64,000 nt of DNA from the NCBI GenBank assembly GCA_050486285.1, contig JBJHCZ010000015.1, positions 4,294 through 68,293 on the forward strand, in the 5' to 3' direction. Below, one piece after another: positions 34,701 to 50,130 of this stretch. The position numbers and the translations under genes were made by a program. The stretch comes from Chromatiales bacterium. Lineage in GTDB: Bacteria > Pseudomonadota > Gammaproteobacteria > SZUA-140. Under the pieces are notes generated by a model, which saw nothing but the letters and a program-made list of their open reading frames with translations, searched no databases and was not told the origin of the DNA. How positions within the stretch are numbered: position 1 is the stretch's first letter; each line of letters opens with the position of its first letter.

Positions 34701-36242
34701 CCTGCTCTCGACCGCAGTAGCGGCGACGGCGGATTCGGGCCTGTCGAACGGCAGCCTGACGCGGAAGCTGCTTCCCTGTCCCGGCGCGCTCCTGACGCCG
34801 ATGTCGCCGCCCATGAACTCGACGAGTTGCTTGCAGATCGCCAGACCGAGTCCGGTGCCGCCGTACTTGCGGGTCGTCGAACCGTCGGCCTGGAGGAAGG
34901 GTTCGAAAATGCGCTGGTGCGCGTGTTCGGCGATGCCGATGCCGGTGTCCCTGACCTCGAACAGGAGTGCCGGGCGTTCGGCGCAGGATTGTTCCGCCGG
35001 TTCGACGGAAATCGTGATTTCACCCTTGTCGGTGAATTTGATCGCGTTGCCGACCAGATTGACGATCACCTGGTGCAAGCGGGCACGATCGCCGTTGACC
35101 ATGGCCGGACAGTCGCTGTCTATCACATAGCCGATATCCAGTCCCTTGGCGTTGGCCTGGGTACCGATCAGGCCGAGTATGTCGTCGAGGAAATCCGTGA
35201 GGCAGAAGTCCTCGCGGTTGACTTCGAGCTGGCCGGAATCGTTGCGCGAGAAATCGAGGATGTCGTTGACCAGGGCCAGCAGGGATTCTCCGGAGCTGCG
35301 CGCAACCTCGAGATAGTCCGCCTGCCGCTCATTGAGACCCATGCCCTGCAACAATTCAAGCATGCCGAGGACGCCGTTCAGCGGCGTCCTCAGTTCGTGA
35401 CTGACCGTCGCCGCGAACTCGCCCTTCAGGCGCGCGGTCTCGATGGCGGCGTCCCGGGCCCTGCGCAGTTCGATCTCGCGGGCCTCGAGCACGTTCATCA
35501 TCTTGTTGAAGGCCGTCTGCATTTCGTTGACATCGCGCGGACCCTCGATGCCGGCGCGGATCATCGTCTCGCCGGAAGTCGCCCGGTGCATCGTCTCGGC
35601 AAGGCGCTTGATCGGGCCGGTGACGCGGCGGGTCAGCAGCAGCAGGGCCGCGAGCAACGCCGCGGCCAGTATCGAGCTCACCGTGATATTGGTCTTGAGC
35701 AGGTCGCCGGTCAGCCCATGCATCGTCTCCTTGCTCATGGCGAGCTGGACATGACCGATCAGCTCCGGTTGTCCGGGATCGACGGTGAACGGAGAATCCT
35801 CATCGATCGACGGAGTGGTATAGACCGGCGAGATGAAGCGCCACTGCCGGTTGCCGTCCTCGATCATCAGTGTCTGTGGCGGGATGGCGCCGGCGTAATC
35901 ATCGAGCCTGTTGATCTCGCCCACGGCCAGCAGCGGATGGCGATCGGTGTCGTAGACCGCGATCGCAACGATGTCCGGCGAACTCAGCACCGCCTCGGCG
36001 TAGTCCTGCACGTTTTCCGGACTGTGCAGCAGCAGCGCCAGAGTACTCTGCGAGGCCAGCGTCTCGGCGGTCTGATGCCCCTCGAACACGAAGCGATCGC
36101 GGATGGTCTGTCCGGACAGCCAGGTGATCGCGATCGACGATATCAGCGATGCGAGCAGGATACCGGCGACGAAGATCAGCGCCAGTTGCTGGCGGAATCC
36201 CATGCGGCCGTATCTGTTGGTCTTGTTCAGGTCCATTGCCAC
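31716..36242 (-). CDS. Hybrid sensor: TM-periplasmic-TM-HAMP-HisKA-HATPase-REC-REC-HPt-REC-GGDEF-EAL
   Basis: SHELRTPLNG, NAIKFT, GGTGLGL, LMDCNMP, AHAVKGSAANIG, LMDGKMP, RLGGDEF, EALVRW, DDFGTGYS; start at 36242 or 36236. Confidence 0.93.
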   Translation of the reverse strand: MAMDLNKTNRYGRMGFRQQLALIFVAGILLASLISSIAITWLSGQTIRDRFVFEGHQTAETLASQSTLALLLHSPENVQDYAEAVLSSPDIVAIAVYDTDRHPLLAVGEINRLDDYAGAIPPQTLMIEDGNRQWRFISPVYTTPSIDEDSPFTVDPGQPELIGHVQLAMSKETMHGLTGDLLKTNITVSSILAAALLAALLLLTRRVTGPIKRLAETMHRATSGETMIRAGIEGPRDVNEMQTAFNKMMNVLEAREIELRRARDAAIETARLKGEFAATVSHELRTPLNGVLGMLELLQGMGLNERQADYLEVARSSGESLLALVNDILDFSRNDSGQLEVNREDFCLTDFLDDILGLIGTQANAKGLDIGYVIDSDCPAMVNGDRARLHQVIVNLVGNAIKFTDKGEITISVEPAEQSCAERPALLFEVRDTGIGIAEHAHQRIFEPFLQADGSTTRKYGGTGLGLAICKQLVEFMGGDIGVRSAPGQGSSFRVRLPFDRPESAVAATAVESRLAGKSILIVDDSETVRRQARRLCESFGMRPVVAQTAQEMSTIIESRRDRNPCFDALLIDADLKANFGRPVADIIGSGELTGVAHIALMANGMADAETATTGNASAWSIRKPLRKSTLHGLLIDMLIGSRPALPARDDPAADSETNKLPRSRILIVEDNRANQYVVSGMLERLGLRPTVAAGGHEAIEALRLESFDLALMDCNMPDLDGYETTRRIRALEGSGRRMPIIAMTANVQDGDIRRCLDAGMDDYLSKPLKLEIIRDKLSVWLRGEAARPLPASTIAPGEAGDRAVAGQTLDEAMFNELRESIGDSFTGMLKVFIEDLPAYLADLDASIREGRLDNVPNIAHAVKGSAANIGASRLADVSRHIESAGRGNDINTVRMLYNTAVAESQTLLTLLRSELDGNRVESGSQGHHGHVGRILVVDDDRYTRLMFRNIIEEEGYRVIEADNGTTAIDLCANDPPDLILMDGKMPIMDGFAACQYLKQQADSAHIPVLIITGLEDEDSIEKAFSVGATDYIPKPVNISVLRRRIAHLMHASRTERHMHQLAYSDSLTGLPNRMRFTSHLTALLDANRETGKPLAVMFIDVDRFKLINDTLGHDAGDMLLKIVAERLHHCVRDGDLVARLGGDEFTIVLDDIGSREVLASIARKICTAFSKPVTFLEQEIFVTLSIGISMFPSDASDIATLMKHADTAMFNAKRYRNDFRFFEYGMEADVARRLKMEGDLRRAVDRDEMLIHYQPQVESRSGKVIGVEALVRWMHPERGIVAPADFIPLAEDTGLIGRIGDQVMFKACRQLKTWLDKGHAPLRMAINLSVRQIEKFEIIDTVSRVLRETGVPSDLLELEITESVIMEHAEDMISIFRKFKEMGIHLAIDDFGTGYSSLAYLKRFPVDILKIDRSFVHDIPDDREDIAIVTGVLAMARGLGLEVIAEGVETAEQARVLREAGCDFMQGFYFSEPLTPEAFEQKYLARDDDHRISNGDNVTRFKPRTPG

Positions 36243-36251
36243 TGGTCGCCG

Positions 36252-37235
36252 TTACTGGGGCGGAAATATCAGGTCGAAGCGGGCGAGGTCATCCCGCGTG
36301 TAGCGAATGCCGAGACGGCTTGCGGTGCGAACATTGAACGCCGTATGCAAGGCATCGAGCAGGCGTATCCCGACCGGATTTTCTGCGCGGCCGTGCGCAC
36401 GATGCTCATGGACTTCCATGGCCAGCGCGCCGATGCTGCGTCCCATTCTGTGATTATCCGGATACATCGCGAACAGGACGCCGCGCCTGACATGTGAAGG
36501 ATTGTTGGAGAAAACGATCAGTTTGCGATCCCATGACTCCTTGAGAATCATCGGCAGGATGGCCTGCTCGTCGAGCACCATGCTGTCCTGGGACAACCAC
36601 AGGGCCTCGGTGCCGCTTTTCTGGGTGGCGAGGATATCCCGATAACTGCTCGCAGCTTCCTGGGGCCTGTCGACCGGAATCGGATTCAGCGTGATGCCAT
36701 GCTTCGCGGAGGCCGCCCTGGCGCGATCGATCAACCACTGTTCCCGCTCACGGTGGTAGATGATATTGACGCGCTCCACCCCCGGTGCCAGCGCCTTCAG
36801 ACGATGGAGAAGGATTTCGGGATCAGGGTTCAGCGCGATGCCGTAGTAAGAATTGGCGAGCAGCCCGTCCGACATGTGGATGGCGCCGATTACCACGGGA
36901 ATCCTCGGTGACAACTCCTTGCTCAGATCCTGCCCCCGGCTGCCGAGCACCACCGCGATCCCGATATCGTTCCGGCCGAGCCAGGAAGTCAATGCCTCAG
37001 CTGTTTCTTCATTCGTGATGGGGCGAACATTGACCTGTCCGCCGAGCGTCTCGGCGATTCCTTCCGCGATAGTCGTGAAGACACTGCGGAACGGCTCCCT
37101 GATCTCGGGGAAGAGGACGGCGGTGACCGGGGTGTCGGCCGAGGCGGGCTGAACGATGAACAGGGGTAAAGCCGTAACAACAACCAGGCTGGCCTTTAAA
37201 GCAAAAGAGAACAAATGCTTAAGAGAGTAGGCCAT
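36252..37235 (-). CDS. Periplasmic substrate-binding-like protein (ABC_sub_bind-like) with no cognate permease
   Basis: Signal peptide ending ASA; P-loop-free alpha/beta pattern; C-terminal FNVRTASRLGI typical of this SBP family. Confidence 0.72.
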   Translation of the reverse strand: MAYSLKHLFSFALKASLVVVTALPLFIVQPASADTPVTAVLFPEIREPFRSVFTTIAEGIAETLGGQVNVRPITNEETAEALTSWLGRNDIGIAVVLGSRGQDLSKELSPRIPVVIGAIHMSDGLLANSYYGIALNPDPEILLHRLKALAPGVERVNIIYHREREQWLIDRARAASAKHGITLNPIPVDRPQEAASSYRDILATQKSGTEALWLSQDSMVLDEQAILPMILKESWDRKLIVFSNNPSHVRRGVLFAMYPDNHRMGRSIGALAMEVHEHRAHGRAENPVGIRLLDALHTAFNVRTASRLGIRYTRDDLARFDLIFPPQ

Positions 37236-37304
37236 GTCTCGGCAGTGCTTGTCTGGCTAAATGGAGTCCCTGCCGGTATTCGCGGGATACCGGCCCGTGC
37301 ATAG

Positions 37305-37331
37305 TTATCGGCCTTGAGTGTCAGCCCTGAA
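37305..37331 (-). promoter_or_regulatory. Possible sigma28 (FliA)-type promoter for the SBP-sensor genes
   Basis: Minus strand TTCAG-N14-GCCGATAA with a perfect -10; 70 nt upstream of the SBP start. Confidence 0.45.
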
Positions 37332-37357
37332 CCATGAAACGGCCGCCAGCAGGCGGC

Positions 37358-39463
37358 CTATCGGCCACCCAGCCAGTCCAGGTGATAGCGCGCTTCGACG
37401 AAGTAGTGGCGGCCGGCCAGCGGGAGGTCCCCGGGAATTGCCCCCGGCGCAGGGCTTGGCTCAAAGGCTTCCTCATCGAAGATGTTGCGACCGGATAACG
37501 CAAACTCCCAGGGCGAACCCATGCCTCGGTACCTCAGGGTGATGTCCGTAAGCAGATAGTCATCGACCTGCGTTCTCGGATCGGCAACCTCACGTTTTCT
37601 GTCTGCGACCCAGTTGACCTGCGCATTCAGTCGCCAATTCGGGAGGAATCGCCAATCTGAACGGATATAGATTTGATGCTGTGGCGCATTGGCAACGTTG
37701 GAGTCTGTATCTTTTTCCCTGGATTTCTGGAAGGCATAGTTACCCAATAATGTCAGTTTGGCCGTGGCTTCATAATGAGCCTCGAATTCAGCGCCATAGC
37801 CGTTACGACTACCTGAGTTCTGTGCAGTCACAGTGGTAGCAGGCGCAGCATCAGGGATAAACCGGAGGATATCATCCATTTCGTACCTGAAGAGGTTGAG
37901 TCCGGTCCTCAGCTTGTCTGAATTCTGTTTTGTGAAGGCGATCTCATAGGTATCAATGGTTTCGGGCTTGAGATCCGGGTTACCCAGCGCCACGGGATTA
38001 TTGATGTTATAGAGCTCGTTAAATGCTGGCGCACGAAATGCACGACCATACAGCAACTTCGTTGTTATGCCAGGAGTAGTCTGCCATACGAGCGCCAGCC
38101 TCGGGTTTGTAGTATTGCCGAAGTCAGAATAATCGTCATAGCGAATGCCGCTCGTCAGCGTCCAGTGGCTGGCAAGTCTCCATTCATCCTGTGCGAACAG
38201 ATAGTATACCTGTCGATCTTGTGGGCGGATGAAGACATTGTTCGGATTGTTGCTTTCATCCACTAATCCCCCTGGTAACGGGATCGGTATACCGCCGGGA
38301 GCAAAGGTGTAGTTCTTTACCTCCCGGACCTTGTACATATCGCTGTTTATGGCGCCGGCACCTATCCGAATACTGTGGTTGGAAAGCCCGTGGTAGAAGG
38401 CAGACAATCCCAGACGAGTATGTCGTTCATATACGTACGGACGAGCAATCATGCCATCCGGGAAGGCGCCGCCAAAGGATCCGGGAGGATAAAGCACAAG
38501 ATTAGGCTCTGCGCTTGTGTCGAAGTAGCTCAGGACCGCTGTAAGATCCCAATGCTGGCTGACCGCGTTGTTGTATGTCAGGTCGGTATTAATTCTCTGA
38601 CTTTTCCCCGACGCCTGAGGGTCGAGAGCCTGTGCAACTCCGGCGCCGCTGCCGAGTTCCTGCCTTCCCTGAAAGCCGGCTCTGAATCTCCAGTTACCCC
38701 GGGCAAGGTCGAATCGTGCGTCGATGGTGTCTCTCTGAAGATTTACCGGACCAGGAGCATAGGAGACATTTGACAGAAAAAGTTGATCAAGGAATGTTTG
38801 AGCATCCGCCTCGATGGTTTCCCTGTGGCCATCGGTAGTCATGTACTGGAGTGAAAACGCGATATCGTTCCCGTTCCACCTCCCGCCATGAAGCATCCAC
38901 CCTTCGCGTGTACTGAATGAGCCGGAACGGGCTCCAAACTCGGTTCCATTGATATCATCAGCAGACTTGGTGATGATGTTGATCGTACCGGCAAAGGCAT
39001 CAGCGCCGTACACGGCGGAGCCGGGGCCGCGGATTATTTCGATACGCGCGATGTCATTGACAGGCATGCCGCCCCATAGTTCTCCCCTGTTTCCTACAAA
39101 CAGATTGGTGATCGGGATGTCGTTGATCAGAATCAGAACCTGCGGGTTGTTTTCGGAATATATGCCTCTTACGGTGTACAGTGGCAGATAGCCACGCGGC
39201 GCGACGGACACATGGAGTCCGGGGATGGATTCCAGGACCTCGTCAAGGTCGCGAGCGCCCATGTCCCGGATGTCCTTTTCAGTGATGACGGAAGCTACTG
39301 CCGGGGCCCTTGAAATTGGTTGAAGTGACCCCGTAGCGATACTGATAAACTGCTCGTCACCGAAAGCGCGCATCAGCGCATCTTCCTCAGTGCCTGATAT
39401 GGCGTTGCCGCCATGAGTCGACATGATCAGGGCCGCACAGGCAAGGCATGAGAGTCTGGACAT
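37358..39463 (-). CDS. TonB-dependent outer-membrane receptor
   Basis: Signal peptide, plug APAVASVIT...RIEIIRGPGSAVYGADAFAGTINIITK, NPDLKPE, RNIFD, C-terminal beta strand. Confidence 0.93.
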   Translation of the reverse strand: MSRLSCLACAALIMSTHGGNAISGTEEDALMRAFGDEQFISIATGSLQPISRAPAVASVITEKDIRDMGARDLDEVLESIPGLHVSVAPRGYLPLYTVRGIYSENNPQVLILINDIPITNLFVGNRGELWGGMPVNDIARIEIIRGPGSAVYGADAFAGTINIITKSADDINGTEFGARSGSFSTREGWMLHGGRWNGNDIAFSLQYMTTDGHRETIEADAQTFLDQLFLSNVSYAPGPVNLQRDTIDARFDLARGNWRFRAGFQGRQELGSGAGVAQALDPQASGKSQRINTDLTYNNAVSQHWDLTAVLSYFDTSAEPNLVLYPPGSFGGAFPDGMIARPYVYERHTRLGLSAFYHGLSNHSIRIGAGAINSDMYKVREVKNYTFAPGGIPIPLPGGLVDESNNPNNVFIRPQDRQVYYLFAQDEWRLASHWTLTSGIRYDDYSDFGNTTNPRLALVWQTTPGITTKLLYGRAFRAPAFNELYNINNPVALGNPDLKPETIDTYEIAFTKQNSDKLRTGLNLFRYEMDDILRFIPDAAPATTVTAQNSGSRNGYGAEFEAHYEATAKLTLLGNYAFQKSREKDTDSNVANAPQHQIYIRSDWRFLPNWRLNAQVNWVADRKREVADPRTQVDDYLLTDITLRYRGMGSPWEFALSGRNIFDEEAFEPSPAPGAIPGDLPLAGRHYFVEARYHLDWLGGR

Positions 39464-39539
39464 GATGCCACCATCTGTTTATGCAGGAGGGACCTGCCTT
39501 CTAATGGTGGTTTTAGCGACAACCGCAGGCTAATACTTT

Positions 39540-39622
39540 AGTGTAGAGAGGGGTGTGGCCAGGCTTCAGTATCTGGCCGGGTGCCAGGGGGTAATAAAAT
39601 ATTAAATAAAAACAAAATATTA
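39540..39622 (-). promoter_or_regulatory. AT-rich regulatory region upstream of the TonB receptor (sigmaS-like -10, IHF-like site)
   Basis: Minus-strand CTACACT at 39540-39546; AAACAAAATATTA at 39610-39622 has one mismatch to WATCAANNNNTTR and an adjacent A-tract. Confidence 0.35.
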
Positions 39623-39643
39623 AAACGGTTTATTGGAGATAAA

Positions 39644-40462
39644 TCAAGATTGATCGCGATCCCAGGGGCGATGCCCGTGACCGTTGTACTCGATACGCTC
39701 ACACGACATCGGGAGGAAGGAGCCTTCTACCCGCTCCGCTGCTTCCATATAGCAGGGGATCATACCTGCGACGAATGATGGTATCAGGTACAGGTAATAC
39801 TCATAAGTACTCAGCCCCTGATCGGCCGCCAGCGCCGCACCCAGTGCAGCGGCATTCATTCTGAATCGATAGCGGGAACTGATCAGTATCTCCTCGATCT
39901 CGAAGATCAATCTGAGGTGGCGGCCGTTTCCAAAGCCCAGCGATTCAGCGACTTCGCAGACAGGTTTGATGCGTTCGTCAGCATTGACAAGTGGTCTGCC
40001 ATAACCCGCGATACCGCGATGCCGCGCCAGTTCGTTGGTGACGATGATGGACAGGTCAGCACCGGAATCGAGTTTTTCGGTAGTTCTGTAAAGAAAATCT
40101 ATCGCTCTGACATCAGGGCGACGTCCGTAAACCGAGGCCTCCGATACTGACAACGCGGCACAGATACCCAAGTTGGCGGTGCTGCGCACAGTCCCGGCTA
40201 GGGAAGCAACGCGGTTATTCCAGATCCGCGGGTCGGGATAACTGGTCCCCAGCGACCATATGCACTCAAAAAGCCGAATCTGGTTGTCGGTGAATTCCCG
40301 CCCGGTAATTCCATATAAAAAGATTTCCATCCATCTCGCGTTTCTGAGGTCGGTGAACAGGTCTTTGCCTCTGAAAACGACGCGTTCTCCGGGGAAGACG
40401 AGTCCCATCGAGGTTTTCCAGTTATCTTCCTGGGAAGCCAGGTAATCCGGACCGGTCATCAA
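39644..40462 (-). CDS. Divergent citrate synthase/citryl-CoA lyase-fold protein B
   Basis: WKTSMG..VVFRGKDL, GIAGYGRP, DER, MNAA; about 270 aa like citryl-CoA lyases. Confidence 0.65.
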   Translation of the reverse strand: MMTGPDYLASQEDNWKTSMGLVFPGERVVFRGKDLFTDLRNARWMEIFLYGITGREFTDNQIRLFECIWSLGTSYPDPRIWNNRVASLAGTVRSTANLGICAALSVSEASVYGRRPDVRAIDFLYRTTEKLDSGADLSIIVTNELARHRGIAGYGRPLVNADERIKPVCEVAESLGFGNGRHLRLIFEIEEILISSRYRFRMNAAALGAALAADQGLSTYEYYLYLIPSFVAGMIPCYMEAAERVEGSFLPMSCERIEYNGHGHRPWDRDQS

Positions 40463-41283
40463 TCTGTGCCTGCTGTCATGGAGTCACCCGACATCGGGTC
40501 GTTGACCAGGTGGACTGCATTTCTGTAGAAAGGAAAGTTCCTGAAACCGATTTCATACTGCTCTATTGCATGCACGGCAGCGCCGGGGAGTCTCAGCAGC
40601 AGGTAGATCATTTCTCCCTGGCGTACATTCATCCCGAGATCGTTGAAAGCGGCGGCCGCAACCCCGCTCATGGACAGTGAGCAGCCTGCAATCGCTTCAA
40701 GTTCCATTCTGTTTGTCTGTAACCACTGCAGCGAAGCGCACGAGGAAGTGACAGCGAGGTGCTGTAACGTCATTCTGACCGGAGTCGGACACTGAGGTTT
40801 GTGCGGGTCGAAGCCGGGAGGATGCCCGATAACGGGCCAGACATCGGCACGTTCAGACCGTTGCGGGGAGCTGAGGTTGCGCTTCCAGTCAGGCAGGTTG
40901 GTGCCGCAGAGATTCCAAAGTTCCATCGATAGCGCAACTTCTCGTGCTCCGCCCAGCTGTCCCGCTCCTGTGGCGAGCGCTGCCATCAGGCATGCGGCGC
41001 TGTCGGATCCGCCTACACCCCCATTCATTGCAGCCATTACGCTATGATCACGAGGGCCGGGGTTTGCGATTGCAATTGCCAGGTCTCGCAACAACTCGAC
41101 TTGTTGTTTGTCGGGCCGCTCACCCATGAATAGCAAGAAGAGGTATTCGATCCAATCCGCTTTTCCGAGCAGATCGCCGTATACATCGTAACCGTGACAG
41201 TAGCAAGCCGATGCAGAATAAGGGTCGCTGACCTCGGGCGTTTCACGCCATATCCGTGTTTTAATGGTTTCTTTGCTGGTCAC
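40459..41283 (-). CDS. Divergent citrate synthase/citryl-CoA lyase-fold protein A
   Basis: IKTRIW..HGYDVYGDLLG, FLLFMGERP, LGGA, PPGF, LLRLPGAAVHAIEQ; overlaps the next gene by 4 nt. Confidence 0.68.
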   Translation of the reverse strand: MTSKETIKTRIWRETPEVSDPYSASACYCHGYDVYGDLLGKADWIEYLFLLFMGERPDKQQVELLRDLAIAIANPGPRDHSVMAAMNGGVGGSDSAACLMAALATGAGQLGGAREVALSMELWNLCGTNLPDWKRNLSSPQRSERADVWPVIGHPPGFDPHKPQCPTPVRMTLQHLAVTSSCASLQWLQTNRMELEAIAGCSLSMSGVAAAAFNDLGMNVRQGEMIYLLLRLPGAAVHAIEQYEIGFRNFPFYRNAVHLVNDPMSGDSMTAGTD

Positions 41284-41290
41284 GGGATTA

Positions 41291-42337
41291 TCAATACTTG
41301 TGGCCGGTTATCAGGCTGTAATAGCCGTAGCCGGAGGATATGTCAATATTCGAAAAGCCGGCCTCGTCAAGCAGAGTAACCAGTTCCGGGCCAGTAAATT
41401 GCTTGCCTTCCGTCACCATCAACATAGCCAGAGAGTAGGCATTTCCTGTAACAGGACCGCATGCGTCGTCGTCGAGAAGAACTTCATTGAGAATGATGCG
41501 CCCACCGGGAATCAGGCTGTCTAATGCCTTGCGAGCAAGAGCAAGGCACATATCCCGATTCCAGTCATGAACGATGTCACTCATGAATATTGCATCAAAA
41601 CCCGTGGGCCATGAGTCACGAAACATGTCGAGTGGCAAGACTTCAATCCTGTCAGAAAGCCGATAGGTCTTGATATATTCCCTGGTATGGTGACAGACAG
41701 TTTCCAGGTCCATGACTACGCAAGTCATATCAGGATGTGTGGCTGCGAGAGAAATAGAATAACACCCGGAGCCGCCACCGACATCGAGCAGGCGGTTGAT
41801 ATTCTCGACACAGGGGGATCTTGCCAGCGCGATCGCAGAGGCAAACCCGTGGCTATGCATTTTTGCAGTGAAGCTCCTGGCCTGTTCCGGGGCAAGTGTT
41901 GAATCCTTCCACATATCCGTGAATCGCCTGCCAGACCCGCGGGCAGGGTGTGCCGCATCACCCCTGATCGCATCCATGATCATTGAATGACTGACCGGAT
42001 TGTCCTTGACTGTGTGAAGGACGCCGCCCCAGTAGTGAGGGCTGTCAGGTAACAGGTAGCTGCCTGAAAGATCGGTGATATGGAATTTTTTATTGTGTCT
42101 GGCAAGGAAACCCATTGCAGTAAGCATATTCAGTAATGCCTCGGCGGAGCGTTCACTCAATCCGAGGTCATTGGCAAGCTCGTTAGCGGTAGAAGGGGTT
42201 TCCCGGAGTCTCTGAAATATACCCAGCTCGTCGGCGACAGTAAGCGCGGGTAGTCTGAACCCTGACAACCAGATGTCCCAAAGCGGCCGGTTGTCTGTGG
42301 GCGGCAACGGCGGGAGGTTATGCTCCGGAGGCGACAT
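41291..42337 (-). CDS. SAM-dependent O-methyltransferase (COMT/HIOMT-like, dimerisation domain)
   Basis: LGIFQRL winged-helix N-terminus, LLDVGGGSG, MDL, DMF, IVHDW; start at 42337 (ATG) or 42349 (GTG). Confidence 0.9.
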   Translation of the reverse strand: MSPPEHNLPPLPPTDNRPLWDIWLSGFRLPALTVADELGIFQRLRETPSTANELANDLGLSERSAEALLNMLTAMGFLARHNKKFHITDLSGSYLLPDSPHYWGGVLHTVKDNPVSHSMIMDAIRGDAAHPARGSGRRFTDMWKDSTLAPEQARSFTAKMHSHGFASAIALARSPCVENINRLLDVGGGSGCYSISLAATHPDMTCVVMDLETVCHHTREYIKTYRLSDRIEVLPLDMFRDSWPTGFDAIFMSDIVHDWNRDMCLALARKALDSLIPGGRIILNEVLLDDDACGPVTGNAYSLAMLMVTEGKQFTGPELVTLLDEAGFSNIDISSGYGYYSLITGHKY

Positions 42338-42349
42338 GGAGAGATGCAC

Positions 42350-44269
42350 TCAGAACATGTGCAATTCAGTCACCAGCATCTGCATCCTTTCAGCCAGCGG
42401 TGGCACTTCATCGCCGTCGATATGGACATCGATCAGCGCCGGCGCCTGGCGGCGGCACAGGTGCGCGATGTCGATGTCGTCGAAGTCGGCCGCCGTCCTG
42501 ACGGTCCAGGCCTCGACGCCCATGCCGCGGGCGACGGCGGCATAGTCGACCGGCGGCAGTTCGTAACCGACGGGCTCGGCGTGCGCCAGTTGCTGGCCGT
42601 GGCGGACGGTGCCGAGCATCCGGTCGTTCAGGATGATGAAGAGGGTCTTGAGCCGGTGTTGCACCGCAGTCGTCAGTTCCTGGCCGCTCATCAGGTAGCT
42701 GCCGTCGCCGACGATGCAGACCACCGGCGCGCGCTGGTTGGCGATCGCGGTGCCGACGGCGGCGCCGATCGCCCAGCCCATCGAGGCGAAGCCCATGCTG
42801 GTGCGGAACCAGTCCAGGTCGCCCGCGCGTTGACCGTTCTCCGGATGCCAGGGGTGCAGATAGTGGATGCCCCACAGGAAGCTGTTGCCGATGTCGGCGA
42901 GGAAGCGGGTGTCCGGCGGGAATAGCCGCGACAGCTCGTACATCAGGCGCTGCGGGCGCAGAGGTTCCGAGTCCTCGATGTATTTGGCTTCGTCGGCGAG
43001 CGAGAAGCGACGGCTGAACAAGGGCGTGCCGTTGCCGTTGCGGCGCTCGCGCCTGCGCCGGTCGTTGCCGTCTTCGGAGCCCGCGACATGACCGCGGCGG
43101 TCGCGGTTGCGGCGGTCGAAGGTGACGACGTTCGGGTAGCAGGACAGCCGCTGGTTGCCCATGTCCCAGGGCGGCAGGCGTGTCACGCCCGAGCCGGACA
43201 GCACATCGATCAGGTCGCGGAACAGGGTCTCGATATCGCCGCAGACATGCAGGTCGGCGTTCTGCGAACGCACGAAGTGGCGGGCGAGGCTGTCGACGTG
43301 CACGAGTTTGCCGTCGAGCTTGCCGGAATGCAGCCAGCCCTGACCGGCCTGTTCATCGAGCGCGGAACCGGCGATCAGCACGAGGTCGGTCGAGGGGTGC
43401 AGCAGGCGCTCGGTCGCGCTGCGGTGGCCCGCGAGTCCGCACACGCCGCGGTAATGCGGATGGTAGGCGTCGATGAGGCCCTTGGCCTGCGGCGTCGTGA
43501 CGATGACCGCGCCGCGGCTCTCCGCGAATTCGAGCAGGGCTGCCATGGCATCGCGGCAGCCTTCGCCGACGACGACGACGATCTGGCCGGCGGCGCGGAC
43601 CCGGCGCGCAAGCAGATCGATGCGCTCGTGATCGGTCGTGCGCGGCTGGCGCATCAGCGAGGCGATATTGACCGGCCGCCCGCTGGCCTCCAGCGGCGAG
43701 CGCAGCAGGTCGAGCGGAATACTCAGGTGCGCCGGTCCACGAGCCTGGAAGGCCAGCGTGATCGCGGCGATGAGCTTGCGTTCGAGTTGCTTCAGGTGCG
43801 AGACCAGCGTGTTGTAATGCGTGCAGTGGTGCATCATCGCGACGGTATCGATCGCGGTGCACGAGGACTCCTGCACCGCGCCGTTGCCGAAGGTTTCGAG
43901 CGGCGTCTGCGCGGTGATGACGAGCATCGGCGTGTTGTCCTGGTAGGCGCTGGCGACGCCGGTGATCAGGTTGGTCGCGCCGGGCCCGGTGGTCGCGCAG
44001 CAGACCCCGAGGCGGCCGGTCTCGCGCGCGTAGCCGTCGGCCATGAAGGCGGCGCCGGCCTCGTGACGGGCGACGACCGGCGTGATGCGGCCGCGGCGCT
44101 GGCTGCGCGCAAGGGCGTTGTAGAGGGGTTCGATCGCGCCGCCGGGGACGCCGAAGACATGGTCGACGCCGATCTGTTCGAGGTAGCGGACGATCAGATC
44201 CGACGCTTCCGGAAACAGACCGGGCAGGGCTTCGGCGAAGGTCTGCGTGGCCTCGAGGGACTTCGTCAT
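42350..44269 (-). CDS. Thiamine-diphosphate-dependent enzyme (acetolactate synthase-like, ScyA-type carboligase candidate)
   Basis: FGVPGGAI, RHEAGAAFMADGYAR, TTGPGATN, GAVQESS, ADIGNS, SMGWAIG, GDGSYLM...LND. Confidence 0.9.
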   Translation of the reverse strand: MTKSLEATQTFAEALPGLFPEASDLIVRYLEQIGVDHVFGVPGGAIEPLYNALARSQRRGRITPVVARHEAGAAFMADGYARETGRLGVCCATTGPGATNLITGVASAYQDNTPMLVITAQTPLETFGNGAVQESSCTAIDTVAMMHHCTHYNTLVSHLKQLERKLIAAITLAFQARGPAHLSIPLDLLRSPLEASGRPVNIASLMRQPRTTDHERIDLLARRVRAAGQIVVVVGEGCRDAMAALLEFAESRGAVIVTTPQAKGLIDAYHPHYRGVCGLAGHRSATERLLHPSTDLVLIAGSALDEQAGQGWLHSGKLDGKLVHVDSLARHFVRSQNADLHVCGDIETLFRDLIDVLSGSGVTRLPPWDMGNQRLSCYPNVVTFDRRNRDRRGHVAGSEDGNDRRRRERRNGNGTPLFSRRFSLADEAKYIEDSEPLRPQRLMYELSRLFPPDTRFLADIGNSFLWGIHYLHPWHPENGQRAGDLDWFRTSMGFASMGWAIGAAVGTAIANQRAPVVCIVGDGSYLMSGQELTTAVQHRLKTLFIILNDRMLGTVRHGQQLAHAEPVGYELPPVDYAAVARGMGVEAWTVRTAADFDDIDIAHLCRRQAPALIDVHIDGDEVPPLAERMQMLVTELHMF

Positions 44270-44375: not shown

Positions 44376-45713
44376 TCATGGGGTCGTCGATTTATTGACG
44401 TCGATGCGGGCGAACAGATCATGATCATCGCTCGCGGTGATCTCGACCTGGATCAGGTCACCGACTGCGATGCCGTTCGCGTCGCCGACATGGACGAGTC
44501 CGTCGATGCCGGGGGCATCGGCATGACTGCGGCCGAGCGCGCGGCCCTCATCGACTTCATCGACGAGGACCTCGATGCGGCGGCCGACGAAGCGCCGCAG
44601 GCGCGCTGCGCTGATTGCGGCCTGCGCGGTCATGAAGCGCTCGAGACGTTCCTGCTTGATGGCCTCGGGGACGTGATCGGGCAGCGCGTTCGCGGCGGCG
44701 CCGTCGACCGGCGAATAGGCGAAGCAGCCGACGCGATCGAGTTCGGCCTCGTGGAGGAATGCGAGCAGGCGCTCGAAGTCATCGTCGGTCTCGCCGGGGA
44801 AGCCGACGATGAAGGTGCTGCGCAGCGTCAGGTCGGGGCACAGCGCGCGCCAGCGCCCGATGCGTTCGAGCACGTTTTCGCTGCTCGCCGGCCGCTTCAT
44901 CGCCTTGAGTATGCGCGGACTCGCGTGCTGGAACGGGACGTCGAGATAGGGCAGGATGCGGCCCTCGGCCATCAGCGGGATGACTTCATCGACGTGCGGG
45001 TACGGGTAGACGTAATGCAGTCGGACCCAGATGCCGAGTTCGCCGAGCGCCTGCGCCAGCTCGAGAAAGCGCGTGCGCAGCGGCCGGCCGTTCCAGAAGC
45101 CGGTGCGATAGCGCAGGTCCGCGCCGTAGGCGCTGGTGTCCTGCGAGATCACCAGCAGTTCGCGGACGCCGGCCTTTGCCAGGCTCTCGGCCTCGCTCAT
45201 GACCTCGCCGATCGGCCGGCTGACCAGATCGCCGCGCATCGACGGGATGATGCAGAAGGTGCAGCGGTGATTGCAGCCCTCGGAGATCTTCAGATAGGCG
45301 TAGTGACGCGGCGTCAGCTTGAGGCCGTGGTCGGGGATCAGGCTGGTCATCGGATCATGGACGGCGGGCAGATGCCGGTGGATCGCGCCCATGACCTCGT
45401 CGAGGGCATGCGGGCCGGTGACCGCGAGGACATCGGGATGGGTCTCGCGGATGATATCGCCGCGGGCGCCGAGGCAGCCGGTGACGATGACCCTGCCATT
45501 CTCCGCCAGCGCCTCGCCGATCGCGTCCAGCGATTCGTCGACGGCGTCGTCGATGAAGCCGCAGGTATTGACGACGACGAGGTCGGCCTCATCGTAGCCG
45601 GCGCCGATGCCGTAGCCCTCGGCGCGCAAGCGGGTGATGATGCGTTCGGAGTCGACCAGCGCCTTCGGGCAGCCGAGGCTGACGAAGCCGATTTTCGGTA
45701 TCGATTTGTTCAC
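44376..45713 (-). CDS. rimO: Ribosomal protein S12 methylthiotransferase
   Basis: [35 protein letters not shown] domain. Confidence 0.97.
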
Positions 45714-45737
45714 GGAAGTTGCGTCAATCGTTGTCCG

Positions 45738-46922
45738 TCAATAGCCGACCAGTTCGACATAGCCGCGACCGCCGATGTCCCGGCCCTGGCGGCGGCCGCT
45801 GACGTCGACCGCGCCCTCCCAGTACGGAATCGACACGTCGAGTTCCTGCTGCGCGAGGATCGGGCGGACTTCGAGCTGGAGATCCTGCGCCGGCAGCGCC
45901 AGGCGCCAGCGCGCCGGGTAGACCGCGCCGCGCGGACTTTGCCAGAGGTCGAGCACGTCGAGGATCACCTCATCCGCGGCCAGCGTCACCGCGTTGCCGG
46001 CGGGGTCGGTCAGGGTGCCGCTGCTGAACGGGTCGATGGTGCCGTCGTCGCGGCGCAGCCGGTAGACCATCAGGTCGCTGCCGTCGTCGAGATGCAGCGC
46101 GAACCAGTCCCAGCCCTGCTGGTCGTCGGCGAGCGCGCTGGTACTCCATTCGCGATCGAGCCACGCAAGCCCGCGCACCGCATGGGTCTCGCCGCCGGCG
46201 CGGAGTATACCACGGGCATCGAGCCGGGTAAGGGCATAGTAATAGGACGCATTGCCGGGGGCGGCGCTCTTGCGGCTGAGTCCGTGTTCGCCGTTCAGCA
46301 CGACCGGCTTTTGCGGCCTGAGTTCGAGTTCGAACATCGCGTCGTCTTCGGCGGCGCGCAGGCGCCAGACGTCTTCCTGCGCATCGGTTTCGAGCGACCA
46401 GTCCTCGAGCCAGACCCGCAACGGCGCCGCTTCGGCGCCCGCCAGACCGGCGGCGCCGCGGGCGAAGCGCTCGTGATAATGAAACGCCTCGCGGGCGGGG
46501 TCGGTGATCGCGAAGTGCGCCATGTAGGCCTGGTTCGTGCCCCAGGCCGAGGCGCGCGGCGCGGCGTCGGGCGTCAGCGCCGCGCGGAAGATCACCCACT
46601 GAAAACCGAAGCGGCGGCCGTCCGCAGCTTCGAGATTGCCGGTGAAGTACCACCACTCGTTGCGGAAGTCGAGGTGGGGGCCGTGGTCGCGCGGAAACTC
46701 GAACGCGCGCGGGGCCATCGCCCGGGTGAAGCCGGCATCGGCGCCGTCGCCGCCAGATCCATTGCCGGCGCCGAGAATGCCGGACAGGTTGAAGGCCTCG
46801 CCGTTGCCGGATTCCGCCGGCGCGCGCTCTTCGAGCATTCGCGCCGGGATGATGATCAACGCGGCGATGATCGCGACGACCGCCAGGACGAGCAGGATTT
46901 TCAGCAACAGCTGCATGATCAT
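45738..46922 (-). CDS. Lipocalin-like/CrtC-like (AttH-type) secreted protein
   Basis: FPRDHGPH, EWWYFTGNL, WLDREWS, GWDWF, YWEGAV, GYVELVGY; ATGA overlap with the permease gene. Confidence 0.85.
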   Translation of the reverse strand: MIMQLLLKILLVLAVVAIIAALIIIPARMLEERAPAESGNGEAFNLSGILGAGNGSGGDGADAGFTRAMAPRAFEFPRDHGPHLDFRNEWWYFTGNLEAADGRRFGFQWVIFRAALTPDAAPRASAWGTNQAYMAHFAITDPAREAFHYHERFARGAAGLAGAEAAPLRVWLEDWSLETDAQEDVWRLRAAEDDAMFELELRPQKPVVLNGEHGLSRKSAAPGNASYYYALTRLDARGILRAGGETHAVRGLAWLDREWSTSALADDQQGWDWFALHLDDGSDLMVYRLRRDDGTIDPFSSGTLTDPAGNAVTLAADEVILDVLDLWQSPRGAVYPARWRLALPAQDLQLEVRPILAQQELDVSIPYWEGAVDVSGRRQGRDIGGRGYVELVGY

Positions 46923-49450
46923 TCCTCGCGCAATACCGCGCCGGGCGGCAGTCGGCTCATTTTCCATGCCGGGTAGAGGCCGGCGATCACTGCGGACAGC
47001 ACCGCAGTCAGTACACCGGCGGCGATGACCTCGGGCGACACCACGGTCTGCATCGTCCAGCCGAAGGCGCGCTCGTTGATGACATGGATGAGCAGCACGG
47101 CGAGCAGCAGGCCGGTCGGGATCGCGATCAGCCCGGCGATCATGCCCATCATCCCGGTCTGCAGCGTGACCATGCCATAGACCTGTCCCGGTGTGAAGCC
47201 GAGGGCGCGCAGTACGCCGATCTCGACGGCGCGTTCGAGCTGGAGCGCCATCAGCGCGCTCAGGATGCCGATGGCCGCGACGCCGACCGCGAGCAGGCGC
47301 AGGACCTCGGTGATGGTGAAGGTGCGATCGAAAATGCCGAGCGACAGTTCGCGCAGCTCGAGGTTCGAGCGCAGGTTGACCGCGCTGGCGGGGCCGGCGG
47401 CGATCTCGGCGCGGACGGCGCGCATCGCCTCATCGACCGTGACGCCCGCAGCGAGGTACAGCCCGAGGCCGCCGATGCCGGGGTCGTCGAAAAATCGCTC
47501 GTAGAGACTGCGCGGCATCAGGATTTCACCCTGCGACGAACTGTAGTCGACATAGATCCCGGCAACCGGAAACGGGCGCGGCCCGTCGGCGGTGCGCAGT
47601 TCGACCCGGTCACCGGGCGCGAGCGACCGCCGCCAGGCCATCGGTTCGGACACCAGCACCGCCTCGCCGCGCTCGAATGCGGGCCAGACCTCGTCGGGAC
47701 GCGCGTCCCTGAGCGGGTAGCGGGGCTTGAGTCCCGGCGACAGACCGAGGACGAAGACATCGGTATAACCGTCCCGGTCCTCGAGGCTGACGCTGCGCCC
47801 GGTCGAATGCGCGCGAAAGTGCGGCAACGCGAGGATGCGCCCGATCAGCTCCGGATCGAGCGCGCCGGCGGCGCGACGACTGCCGAGTCCGGGCGCGGAT
47901 ACGTAGATGTCGGCCTGCAGCGAGGCCTCGAGCCAGTCGGCGACGGAGGTGCGGAAGCTGTCGATCATCAGGCCGACGCCGATCGTCGTCGCGACCGCCA
48001 GCATCAGCGCGGCGAGCGCGACACCGGTGCGGCTCAGCGAGTCGCTGATGCCGCGTACCGCATGACGCAGCGCGACGCCGAAGGGGGCGAGGACGCGGCC
48101 GGCCAGACGGCTGATCAGGCCCGTGAACAGCGGCGTCAGGAAGGTCATGCCGAGGATGACGAGAAACAGCCCGGCAAAGCCGGCAAGCAGCGAGCGGGAA
48201 GACAGCGTGATCAACAGCAGCGCGGCGGCGAGCGCGAGCAGGCCGGCCAGCGCGAGCCTCGGCGTCAGCCGATGGCTCTTCGCCTCGAGCGTCGAGCGGT
48301 GCAGGGCGGCGCGCGGCGAGGTCAGTGCGGCCTCGAGCGCGGGCGTCAGCGCGGCAGCCAGCGTCGCGCCGATACCAAGCAGCGCGGCGATGATGAAGGT
48401 CGCCGGCGCAAACTGCGGCGCGGTCACTGTCACGACGAAATAGAGATCGTTGATCGTGCGCGTCACCAGCGCCAGCAGGGATTGTCCGAGCAGTACGCCG
48501 GCGGCCAGGCCGATCAGCGTGCCGGCGGCGCCGATCGCGAGCGCCTCGGCCAGCACGCCCGTCATTACTTCACCGCGGGTCACGCCGATCAGGCGCTGGC
48601 GCGCGATCACGCCGCGGCGTTGCACGACTGCGAAGGCCATCGTGTTATAGATGAGGAACATCCCGACGACCAGCGCGAGCAGGCTCATCGCGGTCAGGTT
48701 GATGTGAAAGGCGCGGCTCATGCCGGCGAGCGATTCCGCGCGCGCGTCCGCGGGGACGATCACGGCGTCCTGCGGCAGCAGCGCCTCGATCCGTGTCCGC
48801 TGGCGTTCCCCCGCCGCGCCTTCCGCCAGCCTGAGGTCGATCCAGCCGAGCCGCCCGATCATGCCGGTCAGTTCCTGCGCGGTCGCGAGATCGGTGATCA
48901 GCAGGCCGTCGATCGCCGCGTCACCGCCGTCGCCGGCCTCGATCAGACCGATGATGCTCAGGGTCTGCAGGCGACCGCCGATGCGCATCGGCAGGCTGTC
49001 GCCGATGTCGATGCCGAGGCGCCGCGCGGTCGGCGCGGCGAGAAAGGCCGTGTCCGGGCGGGCGATCAGATCGCTGTTGTTGGCGCCCCGCACATTGCCG
49101 AGGGTGTCGCGGAATTGCCCCTCCGCGAGCGCGTCGACGCCGAGCAGGCGCAGCGTCTCGCCGGCGGCGAGACCGTGCGCCTCGAGCATCGGCGCATTCG
49201 CGCGCAGGCCGGACAGGCGAAGGCGGGTGTACAGGCGTTCATCGAGACCGGCCGGGCCGCCGACGATCTGGTGGGTCGCGTCGCCGGCGATGCTATCCAT
49301 CGACAATGCGAATGCGCGTTTCGCGCTGCTGTTCGCGATATCGACCGCCGTGATCACCGCGACGCCGAGTGCGATGCCGGTGATCGCGAGCAGCAGTTGC
49401 CAGGGATGGCGGAGAAAATGGCGCAGCGAGGCGCGCAGCAGCAGGCTCAA
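46919..49450 (-). CDS. FtsX/MacB-like ABC permease (duplicated)
   Basis: GIALGVAV, two permease halves, IGVLRALG, LYPAW. Confidence 0.9.
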   Translation of the reverse strand: MSLLLRASLRHFLRHPWQLLLAITGIALGVAVITAVDIANSSAKRAFALSMDSIAGDATHQIVGGPAGLDERLYTRLRLSGLRANAPMLEAHGLAAGETLRLLGVDALAEGQFRDTLGNVRGANNSDLIARPDTAFLAAPTARRLGIDIGDSLPMRIGGRLQTLSIIGLIEAGDGGDAAIDGLLITDLATAQELTGMIGRLGWIDLRLAEGAAGERQRTRIEALLPQDAVIVPADARAESLAGMSRAFHINLTAMSLLALVVGMFLIYNTMAFAVVQRRGVIARQRLIGVTRGEVMTGVLAEALAIGAAGTLIGLAAGVLLGQSLLALVTRTINDLYFVVTVTAPQFAPATFIIAALLGIGATLAAALTPALEAALTSPRAALHRSTLEAKSHRLTPRLALAGLLALAAALLLITLSSRSLLAGFAGLFLVILGMTFLTPLFTGLISRLAGRVLAPFGVALRHAVRGISDSLSRTGVALAALMLAVATTIGVGLMIDSFRTSVADWLEASLQADIYVSAPGLGSRRAAGALDPELIGRILALPHFRAHSTGRSVSLEDRDGYTDVFVLGLSPGLKPRYPLRDARPDEVWPAFERGEAVLVSEPMAWRRSLAPGDRVELRTADGPRPFPVAGIYVDYSSSQGEILMPRSLYERFFDDPGIGGLGLYLAAGVTVDEAMRAVRAEIAAGPASAVNLRSNLELRELSLGIFDRTFTITEVLRLLAVGVAAIGILSALMALQLERAVEIGVLRALGFTPGQVYGMVTLQTGMMGMIAGLIAIPTGLLLAVLLIHVINERAFGWTMQTVVSPEVIAAGVLTAVLSAVIAGLYPAWKMSRLPPGAVLREE

Positions 49451-50130
49451 CGGCCGGCTCCGGTCGGCGCGAGCCGGCCGTCGGCGAGCACCATGACGCG
49501 ATCGGCACTCGCCGCCACCTCGCGGGCATGGGTCACGATCAGCAGGATGCCGCCGTTCTCGCGCGCGAGACGCATCAGGAGATCGAGGACCCGACGGCCG
49601 GTTTCCTCGTCGAGATTACCGGTCGGTTCGTCGGCCAGCACGAGGGCCGGTTCATGCACCAGCGCGCGGGCGATTGCGATGCGCTGCTGCTCGCCGCCGG
49701 ACAGGCGGTCGGGGAAGTCAGCGCCGCGGTCCGCGAGTCCGACCGCGTCGAGCAGCGCATGGGCGCGGCCGGGGTCGCGGCGGTTCAGCTCGAGCGGCAA
49801 CAGCAGGTTCTCGAGCACCGTCAGCGTCGGCAACAGGTTGAAGAACTGGTAAACGAAGCCGATGTGGCGGCGGCGGAACAGCGTGCGCACGCGTTCGTCC
49901 ATGCGCGTGAGGTCGAGGCCATTGACGATGACGCTGCCGCCGTCGGGCGGATCGATGCCGCCGATCAGATTCAGCAGCGTCGATTTGCCGGAACCGCTGC
50001 GACCGACCAGCGCGATGCATTCGCCGGCAACGGCATCGAGGTCAACCCCGCGCAGTACCTCGCGGACGCGGGCGCCCTCGCGCCAGGCATGGCGAAGACC
50101 GCGGATGAGCAGGGAAGGCGGGTCGTTCAT
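49447..50130 (-). CDS. ABC transporter ATP-binding protein (LolD-like)
   Basis: GRSGSGKST, LSGGEQQR, DEPTGNLD. Confidence 0.95.
   Translation of the reverse strand: MNDPPSLLIRGLRHAWREGARVREVLRGVDLDAVAGECIALVGRSGSGKSTLLNLIGGIDPPDGGSVIVNGLDLTRMDERVRTLFRRRHIGFVYQFFNLLPTLTVLENLLLPLELNRRDPGRAHALLDAVGLADRGADFPDRLSGGEQQRIAIARALVHEPALVLADEPTGNLDEETGRRVLDLLMRLARENGGILLIVTHAREVAASADRVMVLADGRLAPTGAGR

Follow-up and report, generated by a model that had tools for sequence, protein, structure and literature searches.

An arginine-rich stretch within a thiamine diphosphate (ThDP)-dependent enzyme of a Chromatiales bacterium is a real, selected linear motif. The enzyme, P0001, resembles acetolactate synthase (ALS) and is encoded in the 64,000-nucleotide stretch of DNA analysed here (the window), on its reverse strand. 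The stretch comprises two [DE]RRxx[DE]RR units, which form the core of an insertion in the linker between the β and γ domains, and the insertion is predicted to be disordered. The likeness of these units to the arginine-rich peptide of CleD, a receptor for cyclic di-GMP (c-di-GMP), makes it possible, with considerable doubt, that the loop is a regulatory site that folds upon binding c-di-GMP; both the ligand and any effect on catalysis are inferred.

Positions 43040-43120 of the reverse strand encode F384-R410 of P0001 by codon arithmetic (43118-43120 for F384 and 43040-43042 for R410), and the reverse complement of 43040-43063 translates to D R R R R E R R. An earlier reading of the DNA without database searches (the sequence-only reading) had placed an insertion with two tandem units at 43040-43120, and these coordinates are exact. 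Both [DE]RRxx[DE]RR units of F384-R410 lie between the Pfam domains TPP_enzyme_M and TPP_enzyme_C. When P0001 is aligned with BbmA (PDB 8x3x), residues 363-421 correspond to 13 residues, which gives a net insertion of about 46 residues and bears out the claim that the insertion lengthens the 639-residue enzyme. The inter-domain linker has 83 amino acids in P0001 and 40 in the ALS paralog of the same genome. The median linker length is 82 for the near clade (n = 36), 88 when the whole insertion clade is taken (n = 112), and 46 outside the clade (n = 80).

The AlphaFold2 model of P0001, computed with 117 homologs, has a confident core with a mean predicted local distance difference test (pLDDT) score of 86.9 and a predicted template modelling (pTM) score of 0.89. 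The pLDDT is below 50 at residues 388-416, and short strands at residues 382-383 and 419-420 are modelled at the foot of the loop. In the model of P0065, a homolog from the middle of the clade, pLDDT is below 50 over residues 373-430. Because the scores are this low in both P0001 and P0065, the loop is predicted to be disordered on its own.

The homolog search returned 120 proteins with 50-88% identity to P0001, mostly of 600-660 amino acids, and conservation was assessed in an alignment of 35 full-length homologs with 61-88% identity, from which the N-truncated P0036 was excluded. The residues W368, D369, F384, R386, R387, R391, R392, R405, R409, R410, R420, F422, and E427 are identical in all 35 homologs, and R404 is identical in 34. 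An acidic residue occupies positions 385, 390, 403, and 408 in 35, 34, 33, and 35 of the 35, respectively. The sequence-only reading had named unconserved low-complexity sequence as the outcome that would speak against it; what was found is a motif whose eight arginines are kept in 34-35 of 35 homologs and whose acidic positions are kept in 33-35. The ten spacer columns between the units have identities of 0.14-0.37 and contain insertions and deletions, compared with a mean column identity of 0.738 over the whole protein. Each of the eight unit arginine positions uses 2-4 synonymous codons across nine orthologous genes, and since the synonymous codons differ among orthologs, the constraint on these arginines acts at the protein level.

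The composition of the genome (65.6% GC, 9.3% Arg) calls for a comparison with chance, which was made over about 2,800 likely coding frames of the genome and 20 within-protein shuffles. Two units no more than 40 residues apart occur once in these frames, namely in P0001, and never in the 20 shuffles. In contrast, a single [DE]RRxx[DE]RR unit is unremarkable in this genome (3 observed, 1.15 expected). A six-frame scan of the genome agrees in that P0001 alone has two units in a real protein; one GYF_2-pentapeptide protein has a looser version, and the remaining matches are out-of-frame Arg-rich open reading frames (ORFs). No DNA tandem repeat was found beneath the motif, and the ORFs that overlap the Arg-rich region in the other frames of both strands gave no Pfam match. 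A profile of the insertion alone (10 sequences, 61 positions) had 0 matches at E <= 0.001 among 1.84 billion representative sequences; this null is uninformative, as the profile is too short for that library and missed even P0001's own family.

The history of the insertion was followed in a tree of 193 sequences, in which the insertion columns were masked and the root was placed on the genome's own ALS paralog. The insertion-bearing sequences form one clade of 112 tips with a support of 0.948. Within this clade, at least two [DE]RR triplets are found in 97 tips and fewer in 10, and the remaining 5 could not be scored by the anchor pattern; three of these five were inspected elsewhere, and all three have both units. 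Outside the clade, at least two triplets occur in 2 of 81 tips, a pair from the window's own taxonomic family whose placement is weakly supported. The insertion thus appears, from this tree, to have arisen essentially once and to have been retained thereafter. The motif has drifted within the clade: at least one unit with a gap of 2-3 residues is present in 97 of the 112 tips, two such units in 53, and RRxx[DE]RR in 82. Two-unit homologs differ in the gap between their RR pairs, which is 10 residues in 6 sequences, 11 in 8, 12 in 9, 13 in 8, 14 in 1, and 16-24 in 12. In the near clade, the RR pairs of the two units are 10-14 residues apart, counting the spacer and the acidic first residue of unit 2. 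The R420/F422/E427 motif at the foot of the loop is also found in homologs that have no insertion.

The known peptide that comes closest to this motif is that of CleD. The arginine-rich region (ARR) of Cle proteins is described as a tandem [Y/F]xGP[D/E][R/K]R repeat that occurs in 302 proteins (294 alphaproteobacterial, 91% CheY-like) and that is sufficient for binding when grafted (PMC5677366). The CleD peptide is reported to be unfolded alone and to wrap an intercalated c-di-GMP dimer via DRR-x11-(R/K)RxxD, and CleD binds two c-di-GMP at a Kd of about 0.1 uM (PMC7382256). According to the same paper, the ligand contacts are D154, R155, R156, Y163, R168, R169, and D172, while R157, G165, and R167 are also needed; the RxxD turn is arranged as in the PleD I-site, and single deletions between the two halves weaken binding without abolishing it (PMC7382256). 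In P0001, D390-R-R is followed by 11 residues and then by R404-R-x-x-E408, that is, DRR-x11-RRxxE, with Glu in place of the Asp of CleD. Among the 35 homologs, 26 have Asp at this last position and 9 have Glu. The gap of 11 residues between the half-sites is the same in CleD and P0001 and is 10-14 residues in close homologs. Further points of likeness are the 13-residue period shared by the [D/E]RR elements at D390 and D403, and the setting of a short linear Arg/Asp motif in a segment that is unfolded alone, which for the P0001 loop is a prediction. The sequence-only reading had invoked the arginine-rich repeats of Cle proteins as c-di-GMP binders; that premise is correct as far as the published account goes, and the match of DRR-x11-RRxxE to DRR-x11-(R/K)RxxD is closer than had been claimed (PMC7382256).

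On this analogy, together with the selection on the motif, the predicted disorder and single gain of the loop, the GGDEF-EAL sensor encoded in the same module, and an unrelated family of small proteins in which exactly DRR and RRxxD are invariant, c-di-GMP is tentatively put forward as the leading candidate ligand of the loop. An intercalated c-di-GMP dimer would be held as in the CleD peptide, its guanines wrapped by two half-sites that lie 10-14 residues from each other, DRR from unit 1 and RRxx[D/E] from unit 2. Upon ligand binding, the loop would fold and shift the geometry of the linker, which may alter the activity or the assembly of the enzyme, and product synthesis by the gene module that contains P0001 would thereby be coupled to c-di-GMP levels. 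Were c-di-GMP to bind, a private feedback loop between the enzyme and the sensor of its cluster would still have to be assumed in addition, because that sensor is one of 17 GGDEF proteins in the genome.

The repeat also recurs in unrelated proteins. A DNA pattern for two units was run against 401 Gammaproteobacterial genomes, with the reversed pattern as a control. The pattern matched 8 of the 401 genomes, the window's own included; the reversed control gave 14 matches in genome G350, presumably from a repeat, and none in the other genomes. The seven other two-unit proteins are mutually unrelated and consist of a DUF3419 protein, a GYF_2-pentapeptide protein whose repeats lie in a linker, and five orphans. 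The DUF3419 protein (L115, G397:C449) has an N-terminal tail of at least five consecutive [DE]RR-type units. The window's own genome encodes, outside the window, a GYF_2 and pentapeptide-repeat membrane protein (C21:48202-49188, forward strand) with a similar ERR/DRR-rich linker, and its gene adjoins a GGDEF gene (C21:47006-47476, reverse strand); for the homologous GYF_2-pentapeptide protein of genome G191 (L117/L126), no GGDEF was found among the neighbours scanned. One of the orphans belongs to a family of hypothetical proteins of about 122 amino acids (26 members) and is encoded in genome G192 between holC and valS (L125:5899-6264, forward strand). In 15 aligned members of this family, invariance within the Arg-rich region is confined to DRR and to an RRxxD 22 residues further along; the region is followed by a conserved helical C-terminal half, and the family has no Pfam or NCBIfam match. 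This recurrence is double-edged: the motif is seen to be reusable and under selection, yet no independent link to c-di-GMP emerges. It is decidedly improbable that tandem [DE]RRxx[DE]RR units are a portable receptor that folds on binding c-di-GMP or a related nucleotide messenger. Such a receptor would have entered, in separate events, the disordered loops and tails of unrelated Gammaproteobacterial proteins, among them the ThDP enzyme, the DUF3419 and GYF_2-pentapeptide proteins, and small orphan proteins such as the family beside holC and valS.

Several observations weigh against the proposal that the P0001 loop is a c-di-GMP site. The sequence-only reading had expected the insertion to track with clusters linked to GGDEF/EAL proteins, and this expectation failed. 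In a count from which three duplicate loci and all loci with an unscorable insertion state were dropped, and in which GGDEF/EAL homologs were sought within the fetched flanks, such homologs lie near the enzyme gene in 6 of 10 insertion loci and 42 of 61 insertion-free loci. An intact GGDEF together with RxxD is found in 5 of the 10 and 37 of the 61, respectively; several of the loci where no GGDEF/EAL lies nearby are contig ends. Linkage to c-di-GMP enzymes extends across the whole enzyme family, in which the loop is a later gain of one clade, and most members do without it. The loop also shows no co-variation with the presence of a methyltransferase gene (found in 4 of 8 related loci), with a fused or split architecture of the sensor, or with the net charge of the two downstream proteins. 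The comparison with CleD itself is incomplete. Y163, G165, and the [Y/F]xGP element of CleD, which matter for its affinity, have no conserved counterpart in the P0001 loop: neither [DE]RR is preceded by Gly-Pro, no aromatic residue is conserved in the spacer, and F384, directly before unit 1, is the sole invariant aromatic. P0001 and its close homologs have four invariant [DE]RR triplets where the CleD model needs two, so that the model leaves the invariant E385-R-R and R409-R410 unexplained. Moreover, the spacer runs to 16-24 residues in more distant clade members, where a three-residue gap is common within unit 2. Nor is this Arg-rich proteome enriched in a loose Cle-like pattern (5 observed against 2.3 expected, with a maximum of 6). 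Finally, no GGDEF, EAL, or PilZ was found near the seven other two-unit proteins among the 36 of 67 called ORFs that were scanned (about 6 kb), where ORF calling was crude enough to miss the motif ORF itself at 2 of the 7 loci.

Other explanations of the loop have to be set beside the c-di-GMP proposal. Arginine-rich disordered segments generally bind polyanions, and the loop might hold RNA, DNA, polyphosphate, or a nucleotide such as (p)ppGpp. The presence of such repeats in unrelated proteins that have housekeeping neighbours, where they lie in disordered tails or linkers, the conservation of all four RR pairs beyond the need of the CleD model, and the drift of spacer length across the clade are all consistent with such a ligand. 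Even so, it is rather improbable: a biosynthetic carboligase would have no evident need of nucleic acid binding, and the acidic residues are as strictly conserved as the arginines, which argues for a specific hydrogen-bond geometry over bulk charge. A protein partner is given a similarly slim chance. Short conserved motifs in disordered loops are typical docking sites, and the loop could dock onto the acidic protein A, whose gene lies just downstream, onto a neighbouring subunit of the enzyme oligomer, or onto a sensor domain; the ThDP gene is tightly packed with two citrate-synthase-fold genes, and protein A, the product of one of these, has a net charge of about -13. However, protein A is about equally acidic at loci where the loop is absent (median -10, n = 50) and where it is present (median -13, n = 7), and because these ranges overlap, the docking partners are taken to be present and similar with or without the loop. 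A complex prediction of P0001 residues 355-445 with the two citrate-synthase-fold proteins gave a score of 0.00 (mark 0.32), which is evidence neither way.

The loop could also work with no ligand at all. Its units might form a salt-bridged hairpin, paired either mutually or with the surface of the enzyme, or they might act as a charged spacer on which linker length, solubility, or domain spacing depends. The alternation of acid-Arg-Arg makes the pattern complementary to itself, and the modelled strands at the foot of the loop would place the units on opposite arms. Such an arrangement is unlikely, since AlphaFold2 shows no confident loop structure in two clade members and a pure spacer needs no eight invariant arginines beside a freely varying centre. 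The last alternative, a functionless neutral expansion of low complexity in a GC-rich and Arg-rich genome, could draw on the base composition and on the single units that occur by chance. It is hardly credible, being contradicted by the position-specific invariance in 35 homologs, the turnover of synonymous codons, the retention of the motif in 97 of 112 clade members, and the lack of a DNA repeat beneath it.

P0001 has the domain organization of ALS-like ThDP enzymes. TPP_enzyme_N (residues 22-134), TPP_enzyme_M (218-352), and TPP_enzyme_C (485-615) score 139, 88, and 111.5 bits against cut-offs of 26.8, 30.4, and 21.9, respectively, and the Pfam matches listed comprise these three domain families and one weak match to DXP_synthase_N. 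ALS-like ThDP enzymes have a catalytic Glu in the N domain and a GDG...N(N/D) motif for ThDP and Mg in the C domain. In agreement with this, E47, G521-D522-G523, and N548-D549 of P0001 are invariant across 117 homologs, and we take these to be the ThDP-binding residues. All 25 NCBIfam models listed for P0001 score under their curated cut-offs. The biosynthetic acetolactate synthase large subunit (TIGR00118) has the best NCBIfam score among the ALS models and was rejected as an assignment (284.7 bits against a cut-off of 538.35).

The genes downstream of P0001 on the same strand complete a cluster that spans 31716-44269 (reverse strand; Table 1). The cluster is a module for making, re-importing, and sensing a small molecule, with c-di-GMP as the output. 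The full gene set is present in the window and in the relatives L021, L022, L023, and L026, and the synteny holds in the genus and the family. In the window and four of the eight related loci (L021-L028), an O-methyltransferase gene separates the ThDP gene from the first of the citrate-synthase-fold genes; in the four loci without it, the latter two abut. The sequence-only reading had counted on a GGDEF-EAL sensor within the cluster, and the 1508-residue sensor indeed has both motifs intact: a canonical GGDEF with RxxD five residues upstream (I-site) and a canonical EAL can be read in its sequence. Across the genome, 17 GGDEF domains score over the cut-off, and there are 5 separate PilZ proteins. 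The genes upstream of the ThDP gene, at 44376-50130 of the window (reverse strand), encode RimO, a CrtC-like lipocalin protein, and a MacB/FtsX-ABC pair; in several genomes of the genus they keep synteny with the module.

Table 1. Features of the arginine-rich insertion, its enzyme, and the gene cluster, in window coordinates
Feature	Position	Strand	Basis
ALS-like ThDP-dependent enzyme (P0001), 639 aa	42350..44269	-	ORF; Pfam TPP_enzyme_N/M/C; NCBIfam ALS models all under cut-off
Clade-specific insertion in β-γ domain linker, residues 363-421 (predicted disordered)	43007..43183	-	no BbmA counterpart; low pLDDT; linker lengths
W368-D369, invariant flank of insertion	43163..43168	-	35/35 close homologs
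F384 and unit 1, D385-R-R-x-x-D390-R-R392	43094..43120	-	conservation in 35 homologs
Hypervariable spacer G393-N402	43064..43093	-	column identity 0.14-0.37, indels
Unit 2, D403-R-R-x-x-E408-R-R410	43040..43063	-	conservation in 35 homologs
R420-x-F422-x-L424-x-x-E427, older family motif at loop foot	42989..43012	-	conserved; also in insertion-free homologs
O-methyltransferase, variable module member	41291..42349	-	Pfam Methyltransf_2
Citrate-synthase-fold / citryl-CoA-lyase-like protein A	40459..41283	-	weak NCBIfam and Pfam matches; syntenic
Citrate-synthase-fold / citryl-CoA-lyase-like protein B	39644..40462	-	weak NCBIfam match; syntenic
TonB-dependent receptor	37358..39463	-	Pfam Plug and beta-barrel
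Periplasmic binding protein (ABC_sub_bind)	36252..37235	-	Pfam
Hybrid sensor sCache-HAMP-HisKA-HATPase-Hpt-REC-GGDEF-EAL, 1508 aa	31716..36242	-	Pfam

The module recurs in 78 loci of Gamma- and Betaproteobacteria, metagenome-assembled genomes of Desulfuromonadales, and a few cultured strains. It consists of the ThDP enzyme, two citrate-synthase-fold proteins, a TonB receptor, a binding protein, and a c-di-GMP sensor, and the cluster in the window is a member with the same gene order. The Arg-rich loop is restricted to one clade of the ThDP enzyme. Orthologous enzymes that have no insertion, including some of cultured Hahella and Aliikangiella (for example Hahella ganghwensis DSM 17046, L054, and Aliikangiella maris, L048), stand in the same module and are natural controls. 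Literature searches, which covered titles and abstract openings only, turned up no account of an ALS-type enzyme (acetolactate or acetohydroxyacid synthase) that binds c-di-GMP and none of the module, and returned nothing relevant for BbmA/CsmA, for 'DRR motif', or for CleD/RxxD/disordered.

If the loop does bind c-di-GMP, P0001 would be the first ALS-type ThDP enzyme shown to be directly controlled by this messenger, and the loop would for the first time extend Cle-like linear c-di-GMP sites beyond CheY-like proteins and Alphaproteobacteria. It would also supply a missing link in a widespread module, namely feedback from the output of the sensor onto synthesis. Should the motif be a portable receptor, it would represent a new class of linear second-messenger receptor, far wider than that of the Cle proteins of Alphaproteobacteria. 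Even if c-di-GMP is not its ligand, the loop remains a motif of striking conservation with counterparts in other proteins.

Among solved structures, the nearest to P0001 are the ThDP-dependent HKA synthases BbmA and CsmA (PDB 8x3x, 8x3z) and Escherichia coli acetohydroxyacid synthase (AHAS) I. P0001 has the same three-domain fold as BbmA/CsmA (phmmer E 8.6e-87, Foldseek target-normalised template modelling score 0.92) and shares this fold with the acetohydroxyacid synthases (6lpi). In contrast to all of these, which have about 13 residues at the site, P0001 carries 59. Regulation of AHAS is exerted by separate small subunits and not by a built-in loop.

Among c-di-GMP binders, three kinds of site can be compared with the loop. 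PilZ domains combine an RxxxR loop with a [D/N]xSxxG motif. Each unit of P0001 reads RRxxxR and can be likened to the flexible arginine loop of PilZ, and to this extent the RxxxR argument of the sequence-only reading stands; it is weak in that P0001 contains no PilZ domain, with no match to PF07238 at E <= 0.001 and, by inspection, the RxxxR half of the consensus only. The CleD-type match is more specific than the RxxxR argument. R387-x-x-D390 and R405-x-x-E408 resemble the RxxD-type turn of the PleD I-site, although the I-site belongs to a folded GGDEF domain and needs arginines from other domains, whereas the P0001 loop has no GGDEF fold. The setting differs from that of Cle proteins as well: the P0001 motif is an internal loop of a gammaproteobacterial ThDP enzyme, whereas the Cle ARR is a C-terminal extension of a receiver domain. 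P0001 thus belongs to none of the Cle, PilZ, and GGDEF families, and by analogy its loop would at most work like a Cle peptide.

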